Below, in pieces: positions 33,341 to 39,849 of a DNA stretch of 39,899 nucleotides. Origin of the DNA: a virus; UHGV virus genome UHGV-0045955; one strand, given 5' to 3'. A program made the position numbers and the translations under genes. The notes below the pieces were generated by a model. It saw nothing but the letters and a program-made list of their open reading frames with translations. It did not search any database and was not told the origin of the DNA. Position 1 is the stretch's first letter. Each line of letters begins with the position of its first letter.

Positions 33341-33730
33341 CTAACATTTTCTTTTTACTTTTCCAACAAAAGCTTTGGTTGAATCCATATTTCCATAACC
33401 GGAAATGGTTTTTGACATTAAAACTGTTCCAGTAGGATGTATTACCCATGAGTCGATAACGCGTTGAGTTTCGCCATTCGCGCCGATTCCTATGATGGAG
33501 TTTTTAGACAATGCTTTGTAAGCCATGCCGCCCGCATCTGTCCCAGAATATGTGATGCTGGCATCTTCACCGTTTGTCTTAATGATGAATGTTCCACTAA
33601 AACCATCTTCTTCCGGGTGGAAATTATTTCGTTCTGAATAGCTTATTCCGCGCATATCTCCAACGACCCAGCACTCTGCTGTAGCCCCAAAAGATATGAA
33701 TAAGAACATAGCAGTAAGAAATTGCTTCAC
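33341..33730 (-). CDS. Secreted hypothetical protein with cleavable signal peptide
   Basis: 129-aa ORF; N-terminal MKQFLTAMFLFISFGATA then ECWV; lies where P22 carries sieA. Confidence 0.6.
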   Translation of the reverse strand: MKQFLTAMFLFISFGATAECWVVGDMRGISYSERNNFHPEEDGFSGTFIIKTNGEDASITYSGTDAGGMAYKALSKNSIIGIGANGETQRVIDSWVIHPTGTVLMSKTISGYGNMDSTKAFVGKVKRKC

Positions 33731-33847
33731 GCCAACCTCCTTAGTTTTGAGCAGGATACCATGAAAAAAGTAAACATCTTTTGCCTACTTCACATTTGAA
33801 TGGTTTGTCATTAGGATGTTTCCGGTTTTTTAAATATGGAAATTGAT

Positions 33848-34267
33848 ATGAAGAGGATTATTGGCGTCGTTGCTGGCGCTATATTGTTATCTGGGTGCGC
33901 AACTATTGTTGGTGACGAAACGCAGCTTGTGCAAGTGAACAGCAATCCTTCCGGTGCGAGCTTTAAGGTAAAAGACGAATCAGGCGTGATTGTTGCGCAA
34001 GGTAAGACCCCACAAGGAGTAACTCTTGCCAAGTCAGATGGTAGTTATTTTGGCAAAAAGAGCTACCAGATCACTATGGAAAAGGATGGGTACGAACCAG
34101 TTACCCTGCCAATCAAAGCCAATGCTAATGGCTGGTATATTGGTGGAAACCTTGTGTTTGGTGGGTTAATTGGTTGGCTTGCTGTAGATCCTTTTAATGG
34201 TGGGATGTATACCTTGAAGCCAAAAGAGGCAAACGCATCTCTTATACCATCAACAAAGCAAGACTAA
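33848..34267 (+). CDS. Lipoprotein with PEGA-like beta domain and Gly-rich hydrophobic C-terminal segment
   Basis: Signal MKRIIGVVAGAILLSGC with lipobox LSGC; region NSNPSGASFKV...GKTP...KDGYEPVTLPIKA resembles a PEGA domain; C-terminal WYIGGNLVFGGLIGWLAV. Confidence 0.6.
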   Translation: MKRIIGVVAGAILLSGCATIVGDETQLVQVNSNPSGASFKVKDESGVIVAQGKTPQGVTLAKSDGSYFGKKSYQITMEKDGYEPVTLPIKANANGWYIGGNLVFGGLIGWLAVDPFNGGMYTLKPKEANASLIPSTKQD

Positions 34268-35780: not shown

Positions 35781-35896
35781 NNNNNNNNNNNNNNNNNNNN
35801 NNNNNNNNNNNNNNNNNNNNNNNNNNNNNNNNNNNNNNNNNNNNNNNNNNNNNNNNNNNNNNNNNNNNNNNNNNNNNNNNNNNNNNNNNNNNNNNN
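35781..35896. other. Run of N (assembly gap) followed by G9T8 homopolymers
   Basis: Read directly. Confidence 0.95.
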
Positions 35897-36241: not shown

Positions 36242-38983
36242 ATGACTAATATGCCTGATATAACTCCAAATGTTGTAATTGGGATGCCTTCGCAACTCTT
36301 CACTATGGCTCGTTCTTTTAAAGCCGTAGCTAATGGCAAAATTTATATCGGTAAAATTGACACTGACCCTGTAAATCCTGAAAACCAGATTCAGGTTTAT
36401 GTAGAGAATGAAGAAGGTTCTCACGTTCCTGTTTCGCAACCAATCGTTATCAATGCTGCTGGATATCCTGTATATAACGGACAGATTGCCAAATTCGTTA
36501 CTGTGAAAGGACACTCTATGGCTGTGTACGATGCTTATGGTACGCAGCAGTTCTATTTTCCGAATGTGCTGAAGTATGACCCGGATCAGTTACGGCAGCA
36601 ATTAGAAGATCCTGATGGTGCTAAAAAATACCCTGAATTACAGATTGCACGATGGCGGGATGATAAAGACGTTCGCGGGTGGGGGGCGGATGACTCTGCG
36701 AATAGAGATTCAACACAGGCTTTTCTTGACGCCGCATCTAGCGCAGGAAATAGTGGTTTGGTTCATGTGCCTTCTGGTGAGTTTATAGTTGATGCATCGA
36801 AAATAGATATTTCACGCTTCTCCGGTGATGGTGTTCTAATCAGTAATGGTGTTCGCATTTCTGTTAATCCGCCGATGCAAAGTTTCTCCATTGGACAAAG
36901 AAAACTTGCGACCCTGAATTTTGGTGATGATATCAATGCGCCAACTATATATGCGAATGCACAAAATGCATTGCAGGGAATAGCTTGTGTAAGGCATGAA
37001 GGTATTGAGAAGGTTTTTATCACTCAACAGGTTGGAGGTTCTAACTGGGGAACGGACACCCTCACAAGGATCAGTGAGTGGCACTATACAAGCGATGGTT
37101 CAACTCTTTATGTTGTGACATTTACAGAGCCATTGCCTCTTGGTCACGGTTCAGATCTTTCTGCCACAATAGAGAACGGTGAACTATATCTGTTTACAAC
37201 AACAATTGCTGAGACTGGTTCCTCTCTAGGAGGGAAGGGGTATTCAAAGACAAAATGGAAAGGGGCATCAACATCTGCTGAAGATATAACTCATTACCGA
37301 GTATTTGGTGAGCCGGGTGATAATAATCTGATTAACCTTGCGCAGCGGGCAAGTATTTGTGTATCTAATGATGGGCGATATGTCATATTAATTGCGACAT
37401 CAAACGCTGGGACTGGCCGCTTTTTATACGTATATGATCGCAAAGAAGTGGAATCTTCTTCTAACCCAATGAAAGTTAGACCGATTAATGGTCCTGTTCC
37501 ACTTGTCCGTGGTAAAGGTCAGTATGGTGCAACACTTCAGGGTATTACATCAGATAGCAGATATATTTACACAATTTGGGGTGGCGTTCCTGCAAGATGC
37601 GTAAGGACAGTACAGATTTATGATATGGGTGGTACGCTAATACGTTCATTTCCTGTATCACTTGCCGCCTCACTTTATACAGAGACTCAGTTAAATGGTT
37701 CTGACTCTAAAATCGGAGTTCCGGTTAGCTTTGAGCCTGAAGGGCTGGCAATAAGAGGTGATGAACTTGTCTGTGGTGCTATGGATGTATGGAAAAGCGC
37801 AGGGGATGTTGTAAGCCATCGTGGTAAAAATTGGGTAAGTATTGTTACTGGTGATAACAAGGGAAATCTTCCGACAAACAGGTCTTATTGGTTAAAAACA
37901 TCGCTTGCAGCGACAAGTGGTGAATGGGATTCAGGCGCAACATATAAATCAGGTGATTATACTCGCAGAAATAAGCATCTGTTTGGAATAGCAAACCTGT
38001 CTGATATTCTTGGCAACCATCCAGTGCATGGTGCAGAATCCGATCCGTATACCGGAACCGCGCATCAATATTATGCTGGAACTGATATCGCCTTTAACCG
38101 TGAGCACGGTTCATTTACTATTGCGATATTTGACGAAGCCATTGGAGAGTATACCAAATCCCTCGAGTTGAATTATGGAAATAACCTTAACCTGTTTGAT
38201 ACAGATTACGGACATGACAATAATTCATGGGTAAGTACGAAAGCAGTATTCGACTCAAACTTTCGAGGTATGCAGTTCCGTTCTAAAGATGGGAATACTG
38301 CGGGTGGTGCTTATATTGATATCCATGCTGCTGATTGTCCATCTGCGGCTGGTGAGTTGATACTTGCCTCTACAGATGGAGGTGTCGTCAGACTTAAGCA
38401 GGGGAATGTAACAGTATTTTCTGCGACTAAAGATACTACATCGACATGGGCGACGACGACATTAAGGCCAACAACTGATAACCAGGTATCACTTGGAAGG
38501 TCCGTTAACCGCTTTTCTCAGGTCTACGCAGGGACTGCAACTATAAATACATCTGATGCAACAGAGAAAACGGAAGTCAGAACTCTTTCCGATAAAGAGC
38601 AGGCGGTTGGGTTAGCTCTTGTTGATGAAATTGGTTTTTATCAATGGCTTGATAGTGTAAAAAATAAGGGAGCTGATGCCAGACTTCATGCCGGACTTAC
38701 GGTGCAACGGGCAATGGAAATATTCAGAGAGAATGGACTTGATCCATTTAAATACGGAGCGATCTGCTATGACAGATGGGATGCATATACAGATACAGAT
38801 CCAGCTGTTTATGATGATGAAGGTAACCTTGTTCGTGAGGCTATAACTATTACGCATGAAGCAGGAGAACGCTATGCATTCAGAAATGATGAATTACAGT
38901 ATCTAATGATTGCTGCATTAGGTATACGTCAGAAAAATATTATAAAGAGGATTGAAGAACTGGAAAATAAGCTTGCAAATTAA
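36242..38983 (+). CDS. 9: Tailspike: P22/HK620-type head-binding domain, central receptor-binding (probable glycanase) domain, C-terminal intramolecular chaperone domain
   Basis: N-terminus [38 protein letters not shown]... matches the podovirus tailspike head-binding domain; C-terminal 150 aa ([20 protein letters not shown]...) resemble the S74 self-cleaving chaperone; start set at ATG 36242 rather than the ORF-track start. Confidence 0.9.
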
Positions 38984-39138: not shown

Positions 39139-39849
39139 TTATTGTTTTTCTTTTGTTAGGTTCCAATATTCACTTGTGGTTTTTATGGAGTCCTTATTAG
39201 GCTTTACATAAGGTTTATGTATGGAGAGATGAGGTCTTTCCCAGGCAATGTCTTTTTTTATTACTCTTGCTGGAACTCCTGCTGCAATAGAGTTATTTGG
39301 GACGTGTCCTTTAACAACAGCTGCATAGCCAATAACACTACCACTTTCGATTTCTGCACCACCAAGTATTGCCGCTCGGCGGCCAACCCAGACATGACTT
39401 CCAATATAAATAGATTTTGGCATATTTATACGTTCACCTGTTACTACACTAAAAATAGGGTGGGAGTCATCAGTTTTAACTTCATTTCCACTTGAAAACA
39501 TGCAGTCATCGCCAATAATTATGCTTGAGTTTTCTACAGCAGAAATCATACCTTTACCAGTGCAAGTGAAATCAGAGCCTATTTTTATGGAGGAATTCTC
39601 ACCCACTCTTATATGGGCTTGTATACCTTTGTTTGCGATATGGCATGGGCCAATTTCAAAATACCCATTGTTGCAGTCAAAATATATCTCAAAATATTTT
39701 AATGATGCATCTTTATGAATGATAAGTTTATTATTAGATCCTCTAAACTGAATTAGTTTGACGTCACAACTACCTTCGTACTGGATCTCATTACCCATTT
39801 CATCAGAATACTTCTCTGCTTTTGTTAAAACAACTTTTCTAATTTTCAT
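39139..39849 (-). CDS. Hexapeptide-repeat (left-handed beta-helix) acetyltransferase, probable polysaccharide O-acetyltransferase moron
   Basis: 236-aa product from ATG at 39849; repeated [LIV]-G-x4 hexapeptide pattern (IGDDCMF, IGSHVWVGRRAAILGG, IGYAAVV); visibly AT-rich relative to the structural genes. Confidence 0.8.
   Translation of the reverse strand: MKIRKVVLTKAEKYSDEMGNEIQYEGSCDVKLIQFRGSNNKLIIHKDASLKYFEIYFDCNNGYFEIGPCHIANKGIQAHIRVGENSSIKIGSDFTCTGKGMISAVENSSIIIGDDCMFSSGNEVKTDDSHPIFSVVTGERINMPKSIYIGSHVWVGRRAAILGGAEIESGSVIGYAAVVKGHVPNNSIAAGVPARVIKKDIAWERPHLSIHKPYVKPNKDSIKTTSEYWNLTKEKQ

Follow-up and report, generated by a model that had tools for sequence, protein, structure and literature searches.

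A P22-like E. coli prophage tailspike with a five-bladed propeller between its head-binding adaptor and a predicted self-cleaving chaperone

What does the tailspike gene of a P22-like phage encode once its conserved adaptor has ended, and what would its product recognise on the host? The window analysed was the whole 39,899-nt stretch of virus genome UHGV-0045955, in which the reading frame 36242–38983 is uninterrupted (913 codons and a stop). The RefSeq protein WP_001112910.1 ('phage tailspike protein') begins at the ATG at 36251. This is more likely to be the true start than 36242, because an AGGA Shine-Dalgarno sequence lies 8 nt upstream and the product (MPDIT...) is in N-terminal register with Sf6 gp14 and CUS-3; residues are numbered throughout on this 910-aa protein (Table 1). 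The gene sits in a P22-like genome, where it lies downstream of immI (mnt/arc/ant). In MS 16-3 all of the prophage between integrase and spike is present and pseudogenes are absent, and in five of five carrier genomes the prophage adjoins thrS at the identical chromosomal site. We propose that the gene product is a functional tailspike, belonging to a complete E. coli prophage of P22-like (Lederbergvirus) type. NCBIfam gave no specific name for the spike or for the neighbouring acetyltransferase, and literature searches returned no paper on this protein or on a five-bladed propeller in a P22-like spike.

Table 1. Features of the spike gene and its neighbour, with positions in the window
Feature	Residues	Position	Strand	Basis or remark
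Tailspike coding sequence, 910 aa + stop	1–910	36251–38983	+	RefSeq start; the start first read, 36242, is likewise an ATG, in frame and 9 nt before it
P22-type head-binding (tail-adaptor) domain	1–113	36251–36589	+	Pfam PF09008, E 8.4e-65, full model
Shared neck up to recombination junction	114–146	36590–36688	+	End of DNA identity; drop-off of CUS-3 protein identity
Small alpha/beta cap	147–208	36689–36874	+	Secondary structure of second AF2 model, pLDDT above 90
Five-bladed beta-propeller (phi11 Gp45 'platform' type)	209–516	36875–37798	+	Conserved Q242, H299, S301, Q430, E495, E497
CBM5/12-like small module	517–566	37799–37948	+	Pfam CBM_5_12 (PF02839)
Beta-sandwich domain	567–730	37949–38440	+	Strands of second model, pLDDT mostly 80–95, one loop below 50
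Putative stalk segment before predicted cleavage site	731–768	38441–38554	+	Match to End_tail_spike below cut-off; profile matches to endosialidase stalks
Ser768 codon, predicted autocleavage nucleophile	768	38552–38554	+	Lys773 at 38567–38569
Intramolecular chaperone (Peptidase_S74), predicted to be released after folding	769–910	38555–38980	+	Pfam PF13884
NeuO-like hexapeptide O-acetyltransferase, 236 aa		39139–39849	-	PDB NeuO 3jqy 3e-32, OatWY 2wlc 6e-25

The sequence-only reading had described the protein as a chimera of a P22 adaptor, an unrelated receptor-binding part and an S74 chaperone, and Pfam and PDB matches at both ends bear this out; these matches are far beyond chance. At the N-terminus, Head_binding (PF09008) was matched with 216.5 bits (cut-off 24) over model positions 1–113 of 113. 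PDB sequence matches to Sf6 gp14 (5.6e-64) and P22 gp9 (about 1e-47) were confined to residues 1–120, in agreement with the claim that the likeness to P22 is limited to the N-terminus. DNA identity with other P22-like spikes stops at query nt 414–446, and protein identity with CUS-3 drops once past RGWGA, a motif common to CUS-3, Gally, the N4-like PGN829.1 RBP1 and beta-helix spikes. The segment 'WGADD...' is present and opens the variable part immediately 3' of this junction motif. For the cap that follows, the family profile weakly matched 7y5s, 9vvr and 5m5z in their N-terminal caps. P22 gp9, Sf6 gp14 and the HK620 spike (beta-helix endoglycosidases) share the head-binding domain and the genomic position with the present spike but not their right-handed beta-helix, and similarity to them was absent past residue 120.

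At the extreme C-terminus, Peptidase_S74 (PF13884) was matched with 31.7 bits (cut-off 22), and alignment points to S768 as the predicted cleavage serine. PDB sequence matches of this domain were 7y5s (1e-34), T5 pb1 4uw8 (1e-31), endoNF 3gw6 (3e-16), GA-1 3gud (9e-16) and 9vvr; Foldseek also returned 4uw8 and 3gw6. The stretch T-S768-D-A-T-E-K773 aligns with T-S-D-G-T-L-K of CUS-3 (Ser-x4-Lys motif), and of the 77 family members that have the chaperone, 76 contain SDxxxK (local phmmer counts). The corresponding catalytic dyad of endoNF is S911/K916. The putative stalk before the cleavage site matched Pfam End_tail_spike at positions 123–160 of 160 below the cut-off (22.5 bits against 25), and the family profile matched the stalks of the endosialidases 4hiz, 3gvj and 1v0e at 5e-6 to 6e-5. 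The monomer AF2 model is of low confidence in the stalk, as expected for an obligate trimer.

For the central part, an AF2 run with a 15-sequence alignment gave a pLDDT of 68 and poor termini; prediction was repeated on the centre with a 109-sequence alignment (pLDDT 90.2, pTM 0.86). The resulting model consists of antiparallel four-stranded blades, five in number, with an N-terminal strand closing the propeller, and Foldseek on the first model gave a fold answer that agrees with the second. The centre had been expected to differ from the P22 and HK620 fold, and both structure prediction and Foldseek place it elsewhere. The likening of one segment to pectate-lyase-type enzymes was right only in part: the resemblance is confined to a short cap motif at the N-terminus, and the central body is not a beta-helix. 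A body of beta-helix or pectate-lyase type was rejected, since neither Beta_helix nor Pectate_lyase_3 was found in Pfam and both structure models differ from it; a beta-helix was missing among the top Foldseek matches. Behind the propeller, CBM_5_12 scored 19.4 bits in the whole protein and 26.2 bits in the isolated segment, which equals the cut-off (E 8.5e-6). It was the weak top match in seven of ten homologues, and the chitin-binding domain (ChBD) of chitinase A1 was matched at E 0.7. Pfam returned no match for the beta-sandwich that follows.

A profile of the propeller alone matched the receptor-binding proteins (RBPs) of Gram-positive phages, namely NF5 (1.8e-6), P68 (7e-4) and phi11 (0.066), with the GHG, MQG and EPEG motifs aligned; across such proteins the profile E values ranged from 1.8e-6 to 0.17. 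By these profile alignments, the central body is shown to be homologous to the Gram-positive phage platforms and not merely to have the same fold. With phi11 Gp45, 80alpha gp61, P68 gp17 and the NF5 RBP it shares the five-bladed platform, the three motifs and the residues proposed to form a GlcNAc pocket. The stem-platform-tower architecture of the phi11 type is not reproduced: only the platform domain is shared, a coiled-coil stem is lacking, and the putative stalk and predicted self-cleaving chaperone of this spike are not among the domains described for phi11-type RBPs. Because the host is Gram-negative, wall teichoic acid is ruled out as ligand. Among 109 homologues, Q242, H299, Q430, E495 and E497 are conserved at 97–100%, E495 being invariant. 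The cavity of phi11 Gp45 is lined by Gln165, Thr211 and Gln330 (PMC4901313); the sugar pocket itself was only modelled there, GlcNAc soaking having failed. When the 12-residue tag offset was taken into account, Q430 aligned with phi11 Gln330 and S301 with phi11 Thr211. From the blade motif, Q242 is the probable counterpart of phi11 Gln165, and blade register together with the alignment to phi11 would place the conserved positions inside the cavity of the propeller.

The phi11-type platforms are more distant relatives than GA-1 gp12, the neck appendage of a Bacillus phage, which is homologous over nearly the entire receptor-binding body and chaperone. In tblastn it is 27.6% identical across 81% of the centre (E 4e-40), and Foldseek gives E 3e-42 with TM 0.62. 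GA-1 gp12 has a phi29-type collar anchor and a Gram-positive host, whereas the present spike has the P22 head-binding domain; we know of no defined receptor of the GA-1 gp12 body. Together with the homology to the phi11 platform, this documents the exchange of a whole receptor-binding/chaperone module across the Gram divide. The same propeller family occurs in the Gamaleyavirus PGN829.1 RBP1 and in Lederbergvirus Gally / vB_EcoP-683R2 (34–36% identity over 94–99% of the centre), and Gally also carries the P22 adaptor. In place of the S74 chaperone, these proteins end in a different module, marked by a GTGNTGW motif. A single subtype made up of PGN829.1 RBP1 and the Gally-type spike was considered and rejected, the two being 46% identical.

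The layout had been compared with that of CUS-3, and the comparison holds: identity to the CUS-3 spike is 75% over residues 1–190, which include the P22 head-binding domain and the neck, and 32% over the chaperone, with nothing between. In the endosialidase spikes of CUS-3 and K1F, too, a propeller is followed by a stalk and then the S74 chaperone, and the S-D-x-x-x-K motif is aligned in CUS-3. The central domain is, however, unrelated in sequence to that of CUS-3, lacks PF12217, PF12218 and PF12195, and has five blades instead of six; the six-bladed GH58 sialidase propeller with inserted beta-barrel of CUS-3 and K1F was not found in this spike. An endosialidase was rejected on the missing GH58 Pfam domains and the blade number, and identity with the CUS-3 spike itself because DNA and protein similarity are lost near residue 190 and return only with the chaperone. 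The spike is a variant of an already known modular design and not a new kind of system.

With a probability of roughly 0.6, we read the protein as a three-module P22-like spike, made up of an adaptor, a glycan-recognising propeller body and a stalk with self-cleaving chaperone, that is accompanied by a masking acetyltransferase and has a receptor other than a single O-antigen. By homology, the P22-type head-binding domain would dock the trimer on the tail hub (gp4/gp10). The receptor-binding body would follow in the order cap, five-bladed propeller, CBM5/12-like knob and beta-sandwich, and the propeller cavity (Q242, H299/S301, Q430, E495/E497), whose residues appear to correspond to those proposed to hold GlcNAc in phi11 Gp45, would recognise a cell-surface glycan. 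The S74 chaperone would drive trimer folding of the stalk and, as its motif suggests, then cut itself off after Ser768 by means of a Ser768/Lys773 dyad. The mature spike would then be 768 residues long (about 83 kDa), with the remaining 142 residues released as a fragment of about 16 kDa.

Binding by the propeller, with or without a mild modifying activity, is favoured over classical depolymerisation. For the nearest solved relatives, phi11 Gp45, P68 gp17 and the NF5 RBP, receptor binding is described and no catalysis is known. The propeller could instead be an enzyme that breaks down or edits capsule or O-antigen, whether as glycosidase, lyase or deacetylase. It would then be a true depolymerase, as the sequence-only reading had suggested, built on five blades in place of a beta-helix; we regard this as a possibility of some weight, though on balance an unlikely one. 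P22-like podophages characterised so far cross the O-antigen layer with enzymatic spikes, and the known P22-like spikes, CUS-3 included, are enzymes, which favours catalysis. The invariant E495 and the nearly invariant E497 and H299 would suit acid/base or metal chemistry. Against this, the H, Q and EPEG residues are common to the phi11, P68 and NF5 proteins, which are described only as binders, and in the fold comparison enzymes do not outscore non-enzymes such as YjiK or olfactomedin. CAZy-type Pfam families gave no match, and no family signature with catalytic acidic residues was found for GH43, GH32, GH62, GH68, GH117 or GH130. Predicted phage depolymerases do include propeller folds, and propeller-type domains make up 18% of those encoded by prophages in Klebsiella, but their role and activity in phages are stated to be unclear (PMC12491483). 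The present protein is a tractable test case for such propellers, having an intact, inducible-looking prophage in sequenced E. coli strains, a well-understood adaptor, a predicted chaperone site and mutable pocket residues.

The receptor is probably not one serogroup-specific O-antigen. The spike was found in only five of 5426 complete E. coli genomes, and examination of the rfb loci of all five assigned the carriers to O4, O7, O7, O11 and O23; a search for O4 wzy was positive in one of the five. This spread over four O-serogroups argues against a single O-antigen as receptor, the more so as the spike DNA is 99.1–100% identical across the O4, O7 and O11 hosts while their O-loci have unrelated wzx/wzy and different sugar pathways. 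A second subtype of the propeller family is likewise found in several serogroups: PGN829.1 RBP1 occurs in prophages of O11, O83, O86 and O102 strains, and this homologous protein most likely targets a non-O-antigen receptor (Pas et al. 2023). A classical P22-like spike for one O-antigen would follow the paradigm of P22, Sf6 and HK620, with the four serogroups explained by O-locus replacement after lysogeny or by a shared epitope. The serogroup spread could post-date lysogeny, because O-antigen loci are exchanged by recombination; a prophage acquired long ago and passed on vertically would fit the shared location beside thrS in the five genomes, and the two O7 carriers have identical O7 loci. 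Given the near-identical spike in hosts with unrelated O-loci, we consider this explanation improbable. Five carriers are few; the 90% cluster of the protein counts 264 members. A receptor common across serogroups would make the spike useful for broad-range phage or tailocin engineering.

It is very improbable that we are dealing with a functionless remnant decaying in a defective prophage. ISEc31 has truncated the spike of GMF065, where just the 3' part of the gene and the acetyltransferase are left, but the reading frame is intact in the other four genomes at 99.1–100% identity, all functional motifs are kept and the MS 16-3 prophage is complete.

Next to the spike, on the opposite strand, lies the NeuO-like acetyltransferase gene, which was present in exactly the five of 5426 genomes that bear the spike and nowhere else. 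Its product is likely to be a lysogenic-conversion partner, and by analogy with NeuO, which acts on the substrate of the CUS-3 endosialidase, it would most likely O-acetylate the spike receptor in lysogens. The pairing would then be a second natural cassette of spike and receptor-masking enzyme, besides that of CUS-3. In a more specific and tentative form of the favoured reading, which we think unlikely as a whole, the P22-like podophage would recognise a conserved GlcNAc-containing glycan (ECA, PGA, a core or a capsule element) instead of a serogroup-specific O-antigen, with the NeuO-like enzyme as dedicated receptor-masking partner; if true, the spike would be an exception to the rule by which tailspikes of P22-like phages depolymerise O-antigens. 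Identity of the acetyltransferase to NeuO is just 38% (38.5% to the CUS-3 neuO region), a caveat to the role assigned to it, and the portion of its 5' region that was examined shows no poly-psi heptanucleotide repeat. In CUS-3 the spike gene occupies the same genome slot: it follows ant, and a NeuO-type acetyltransferase gene comes next and closes the prophage.

The spike gene is an uninterrupted frame. RefSeq lists the identical sequence of E. coli MS 16-3 as WP_001112910.1, with the generic name 'phage tailspike protein'; PHROGs assigned it to phrog_16355 (unknown function) and phrog_1171 (tail spike). Two in-frame ATGs lie 9 nt apart at its 5' end. The open frame of the sequence-only reading stood, but its start was probably set three codons too early: the second ATG, which RefSeq uses, is more plausible because AGGA lies 8 nt upstream (better Shine-Dalgarno spacing than for the first) and because its product, starting MPDIT..., lines up with the N-termini of Sf6 gp14 and the CUS-3 spike.

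Coordinates of the features (window positions unless an accession is given; residues of the 910-aa protein)
Feature	Position (strand)	Residues
Small gene	33341-33730 (-)	
Small gene	33836-34267 (+)	
Run of 114 N	35783-35896	
Spike ORF, 913 codons	36242-38983 (+)	
Probable spike start	36251 (+)	
Junction motif WRD..DVRGWGA.(G)DG.TD	36650-36690	about 134-146
About twenty strands modelled as five blades		214-530
CBM_5_12-like segment		517-566
Beta-sandwich		567-730
Region matching solved chaperones		about 705-905
Codon of putative cleavage serine	38552-38554	768
Codon of dyad lysine	38567-38569	773
Acyltransferase gene	39139-39849 (-)	
GMF065 remnant (locus L014)	NZ_CM183923.1 2190327-2195031	
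MS 16-3 gtr-type locus (L005)	NZ_CP146667.1 1841101-1843656	

Matches at both ends of the protein were far beyond chance, and the proposed P22-type head-binding domain and self-cleaving-type chaperone were therefore real. At the N-terminus the complete Pfam Head_binding model was covered (E 8.4e-65), and similarity of the P22, Sf6 and CUS-3 type was limited to residues 1-120 in a PDB sequence search. The CUS-3 endosialidase spike was 75% identical over residues 1-190 and 32% over 738-907, with nothing aligned between 190 and 738. At the C-terminus Peptidase_S74 scored 31.7 bits (cut-off 22) and the last 38 positions of the Pfam endosialidase stalk model 22.5 bits (under the cut-off of 25); PDB matches were proteins with a solved C-terminal intramolecular chaperone (7y5s, T5 pb1 4uw8, 9vvr, endoNF 3gw6 and GA-1 3gud). 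The catalytic dyad of family S74, established from endoNF, is Ser and Lys. The putative cleavage motif T-S768-D-A-T-E-K773 aligned with T-S-D-G-T-L-K of CUS-3, and SDxxxK was present in 76 of the 77 chaperone-bearing relatives.

DNA similarity to other P22-like spikes ended at query nt 414-446, right after ...DVRGWGA, which is also the junction in the N4-like PGN829.1 RBP1. The segment described as pectate-lyase-like exists, as the cap directly after this junction, but the body behind it had no beta-helix among its best 60 fold matches. The longer junction motif was common to spikes of P22-like, N4-like (PGN829.1) and other phages with beta-helix, six-bladed and five-bladed propeller bodies; judged by sequence, it has the appearance of a recombination joint used across genera.

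No PDB sequence matched residues 120-700. Homologues of residues 121-735, none of them named, comprised 37 clusters in a word-indexed search and 226 clusters at E <= 1e-3 (106 at <= 1e-30) when 1.84 billion representatives were searched. Identity to the central region was 36% for the P22-like Gally and vB_EcoP-683R2 spikes, 34% for the PGN829.1 'tail fiber' AXY82583.1 (Gamaleyavirus), 27.6% over 81% for the Bacillus phage GA-1 neck appendage gp12 (E 4e-40), 26.9% over 70% for the N4-like Pollock (E 3e-23) and about 23% over 79% for Kayfunavirus fibres (E 1e-18 to 1e-21). A first, mediocre AlphaFold model (15 sequences, pLDDT 68) already indicated a relation to Staphylococcus phage receptor-binding proteins. 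A second model (residues 115-733, 109 sequences, pLDDT 90.2, pTM 0.86) contained about twenty strands in five four-stranded blades, the last closed by the N-terminal strand; its best 60 fold matches included no beta-helix and no GH58 endosialidase, and the spectrum of matches was that reported by the phi11 authors for their platform domain (PMC4901313). GA-1 gp12 ranked first in a BFVD structure search (E 3.4e-42, TM 0.62, 26% identity over 530 columns). A propeller-only profile built from 19 diverse members recovered by sequence the NF5 RBP (E 1.8e-6), P68 tail fibre (E 7e-4), phi11 Gp45 (E 0.066) and 80alpha gp61 (E 0.17), and the motifs G-H-G, [PW]-M-Q-G-[VI] and E-P-E-G were superposed in the propeller alignments. 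As modelled, the central body is a five-bladed propeller homologous to GA-1 gp12 and the phi11-type platforms. Endosialidase identity was tested and rejected because the defining GH58 domains are absent. Behind the propeller, a segment scanned alone matched CBM_5_12 at the cut-off (26.2 bits, E 8.5e-6; below threshold in the whole-protein scan), which was also the weak top match in 7 of 10 diverse homologues; the beta-sandwich that follows has no recognisable family.

Five residues were conserved among 109 homologues: E495 (100%), H299 (99%), Q430 (98%), Q242 (97%) and E497 (97%), each at or just ahead of the first (innermost) strand of a blade in the model. In phi11, a cavity proposed for GlcNAc is walled by Gln165, Thr211 and Gln330, with Met164 and Met329 (PMC4901313). 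Once the 12-residue tag was subtracted (the 5efv SEQRES has 648 residues, the native protein 636), phi11 Met329-Gln330 formed an aligned M-Q with Gln330 opposite Q430, and G208-H209-G210-T211 lay opposite G298-H299-G300-S301; Q242 (L-Q-G motif, blade 1) is presumably the counterpart of Gln165. The residues conserved across the family therefore fall on the sugar pocket proposed for solved relatives.

A binding-centred model was given a probability of roughly 0.6: glycan would be bound within the propeller cavity, and the chaperone would drive trimer folding, with self-cleavage then following after S768. That the propeller acts as an enzyme is the less likely reading; many glycosidases and a deacetylase share the fold, and the spikes of P22-like phages normally have to be enzymes, but the protein carries no enzyme family signature and its conserved residues are common to proteins known only as binders. 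These readings, and that of a single O-antigen as target, partly overlap and are not exclusive on every point.

The full receptor-binding part was found in only 5 of 5426 complete E. coli genomes, O-types being named from RefSeq wzx and wzy models. It was intact in MS 16-3 (100% identity to the window, O4), TUM10008 (99.8%, O11), EC24 (99.8%, O7) and E4 (99.1%, O7), and truncated by ISEc31 in GMF065 (99.4%, O23); an O4 wzy search returned MS 16-3 alone among the five. Specificity for a single O-antigen is thus quite improbable, and the receptor appears not to be tied to one O-serogroup. For PGN829.1 RBP1, a receptor other than O-antigen was considered most likely because prophages of O11, O83, O86 and O102 strains carry nearly identical copies (Pas et al. 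2023). What is left of the prophage in GMF065 is an integrase fragment and ISEc31 directly bordering the 5'-truncated spike, with the acetyltransferase intact beside thrS; immediately upstream is espL1, which encodes a type III effector. MS 16-3 has a second, independent O-antigen-modifying locus adjoining dacD, a gtr-type bactoprenol glucosyltransferase pair (yfdG/yfdH) with a third gene.

The hexapeptide acyltransferase gene lies downstream of the spike at the prophage end. Among solved structures it is closest to two polysialic-acid O-acetyltransferases, NeuO (3jqy, E 3e-32) and OatWY (2wlc, 6e-25), and it is 38.5% identical to the CUS-3 neuO region in the same slot; the examined part of its 5' region contained no heptanucleotide repeat. 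Its DNA occurred in exactly the five genomes carrying the spike body and nowhere else, so the two move together, like the endosialidase and NeuO of CUS-3. In lysogens, the acetyltransferase may mask the spike receptor.

Among 179 proteins collected, 160 had the propeller, 77 of these with an S74 chaperone and 6 with a P22 head-binding domain; all three modules were combined only in the spike's own cluster, P0001 (264 member sequences). Relatives without chaperone (clusters P0011, P0012, P0014, P0018; locus L003:1852-5028) end in a different module with the motif G-[ST]-G-N-T-G-W (about columns 1000-1100 of the homologue alignment A1), which points to another type of cap for trimerisation or folding that can be exchanged for the chaperone. 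The overall layout (adaptor, propeller, stalk, self-cleaving chaperone, partner acetyltransferase) is that of CUS-3/K1F spikes. The body made up of receptor-binding part and chaperone groups with GA-1 gp12; the propeller is in the superfamily of the phi11/P68/NF5 platform but lacks the stem-tower architecture. Propeller receptor-binding proteins are a recognised, poorly understood class (PMC12491483), and a literature search found no paper on this module combination. Of the sequence-only reading, the observation was confirmed and the interpretation upheld in part. The spike offers a solid, testable case for the role of propeller spikes in phages of Gram-negative bacteria; it does not amount to a new category of system.

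In MS 16-3 the spike gene stands at the end of the module series of a complete P22-like prophage, which is integrated beside thrS and has no pseudogenes (integrase, recombination, immunity, replication, nin, lysis, terminase, portal, scaffold, coat, injection proteins, mnt/arc/ant). The N run, which separates ant from the spike gene and precedes G9T8, probably stems from masking or a gap in the assembly rather than from biology, because in the otherwise identical MS 16-3 locus this interval is just a short terminator hairpin (cccagc-ttcg-gctggg-T7). The injection-protein genes and immI are separated by two small genes. The product of the first (129 aa; phrog_2651, unknown function) has a hydrophobic N-terminus, signal-sequence-like by eye, and that of the second (143 aa; phrog_6823) is lipoprotein-like by eye with a weak PEGA-domain match. 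Their position is moron-like, and both might have a role in superinfection exclusion.
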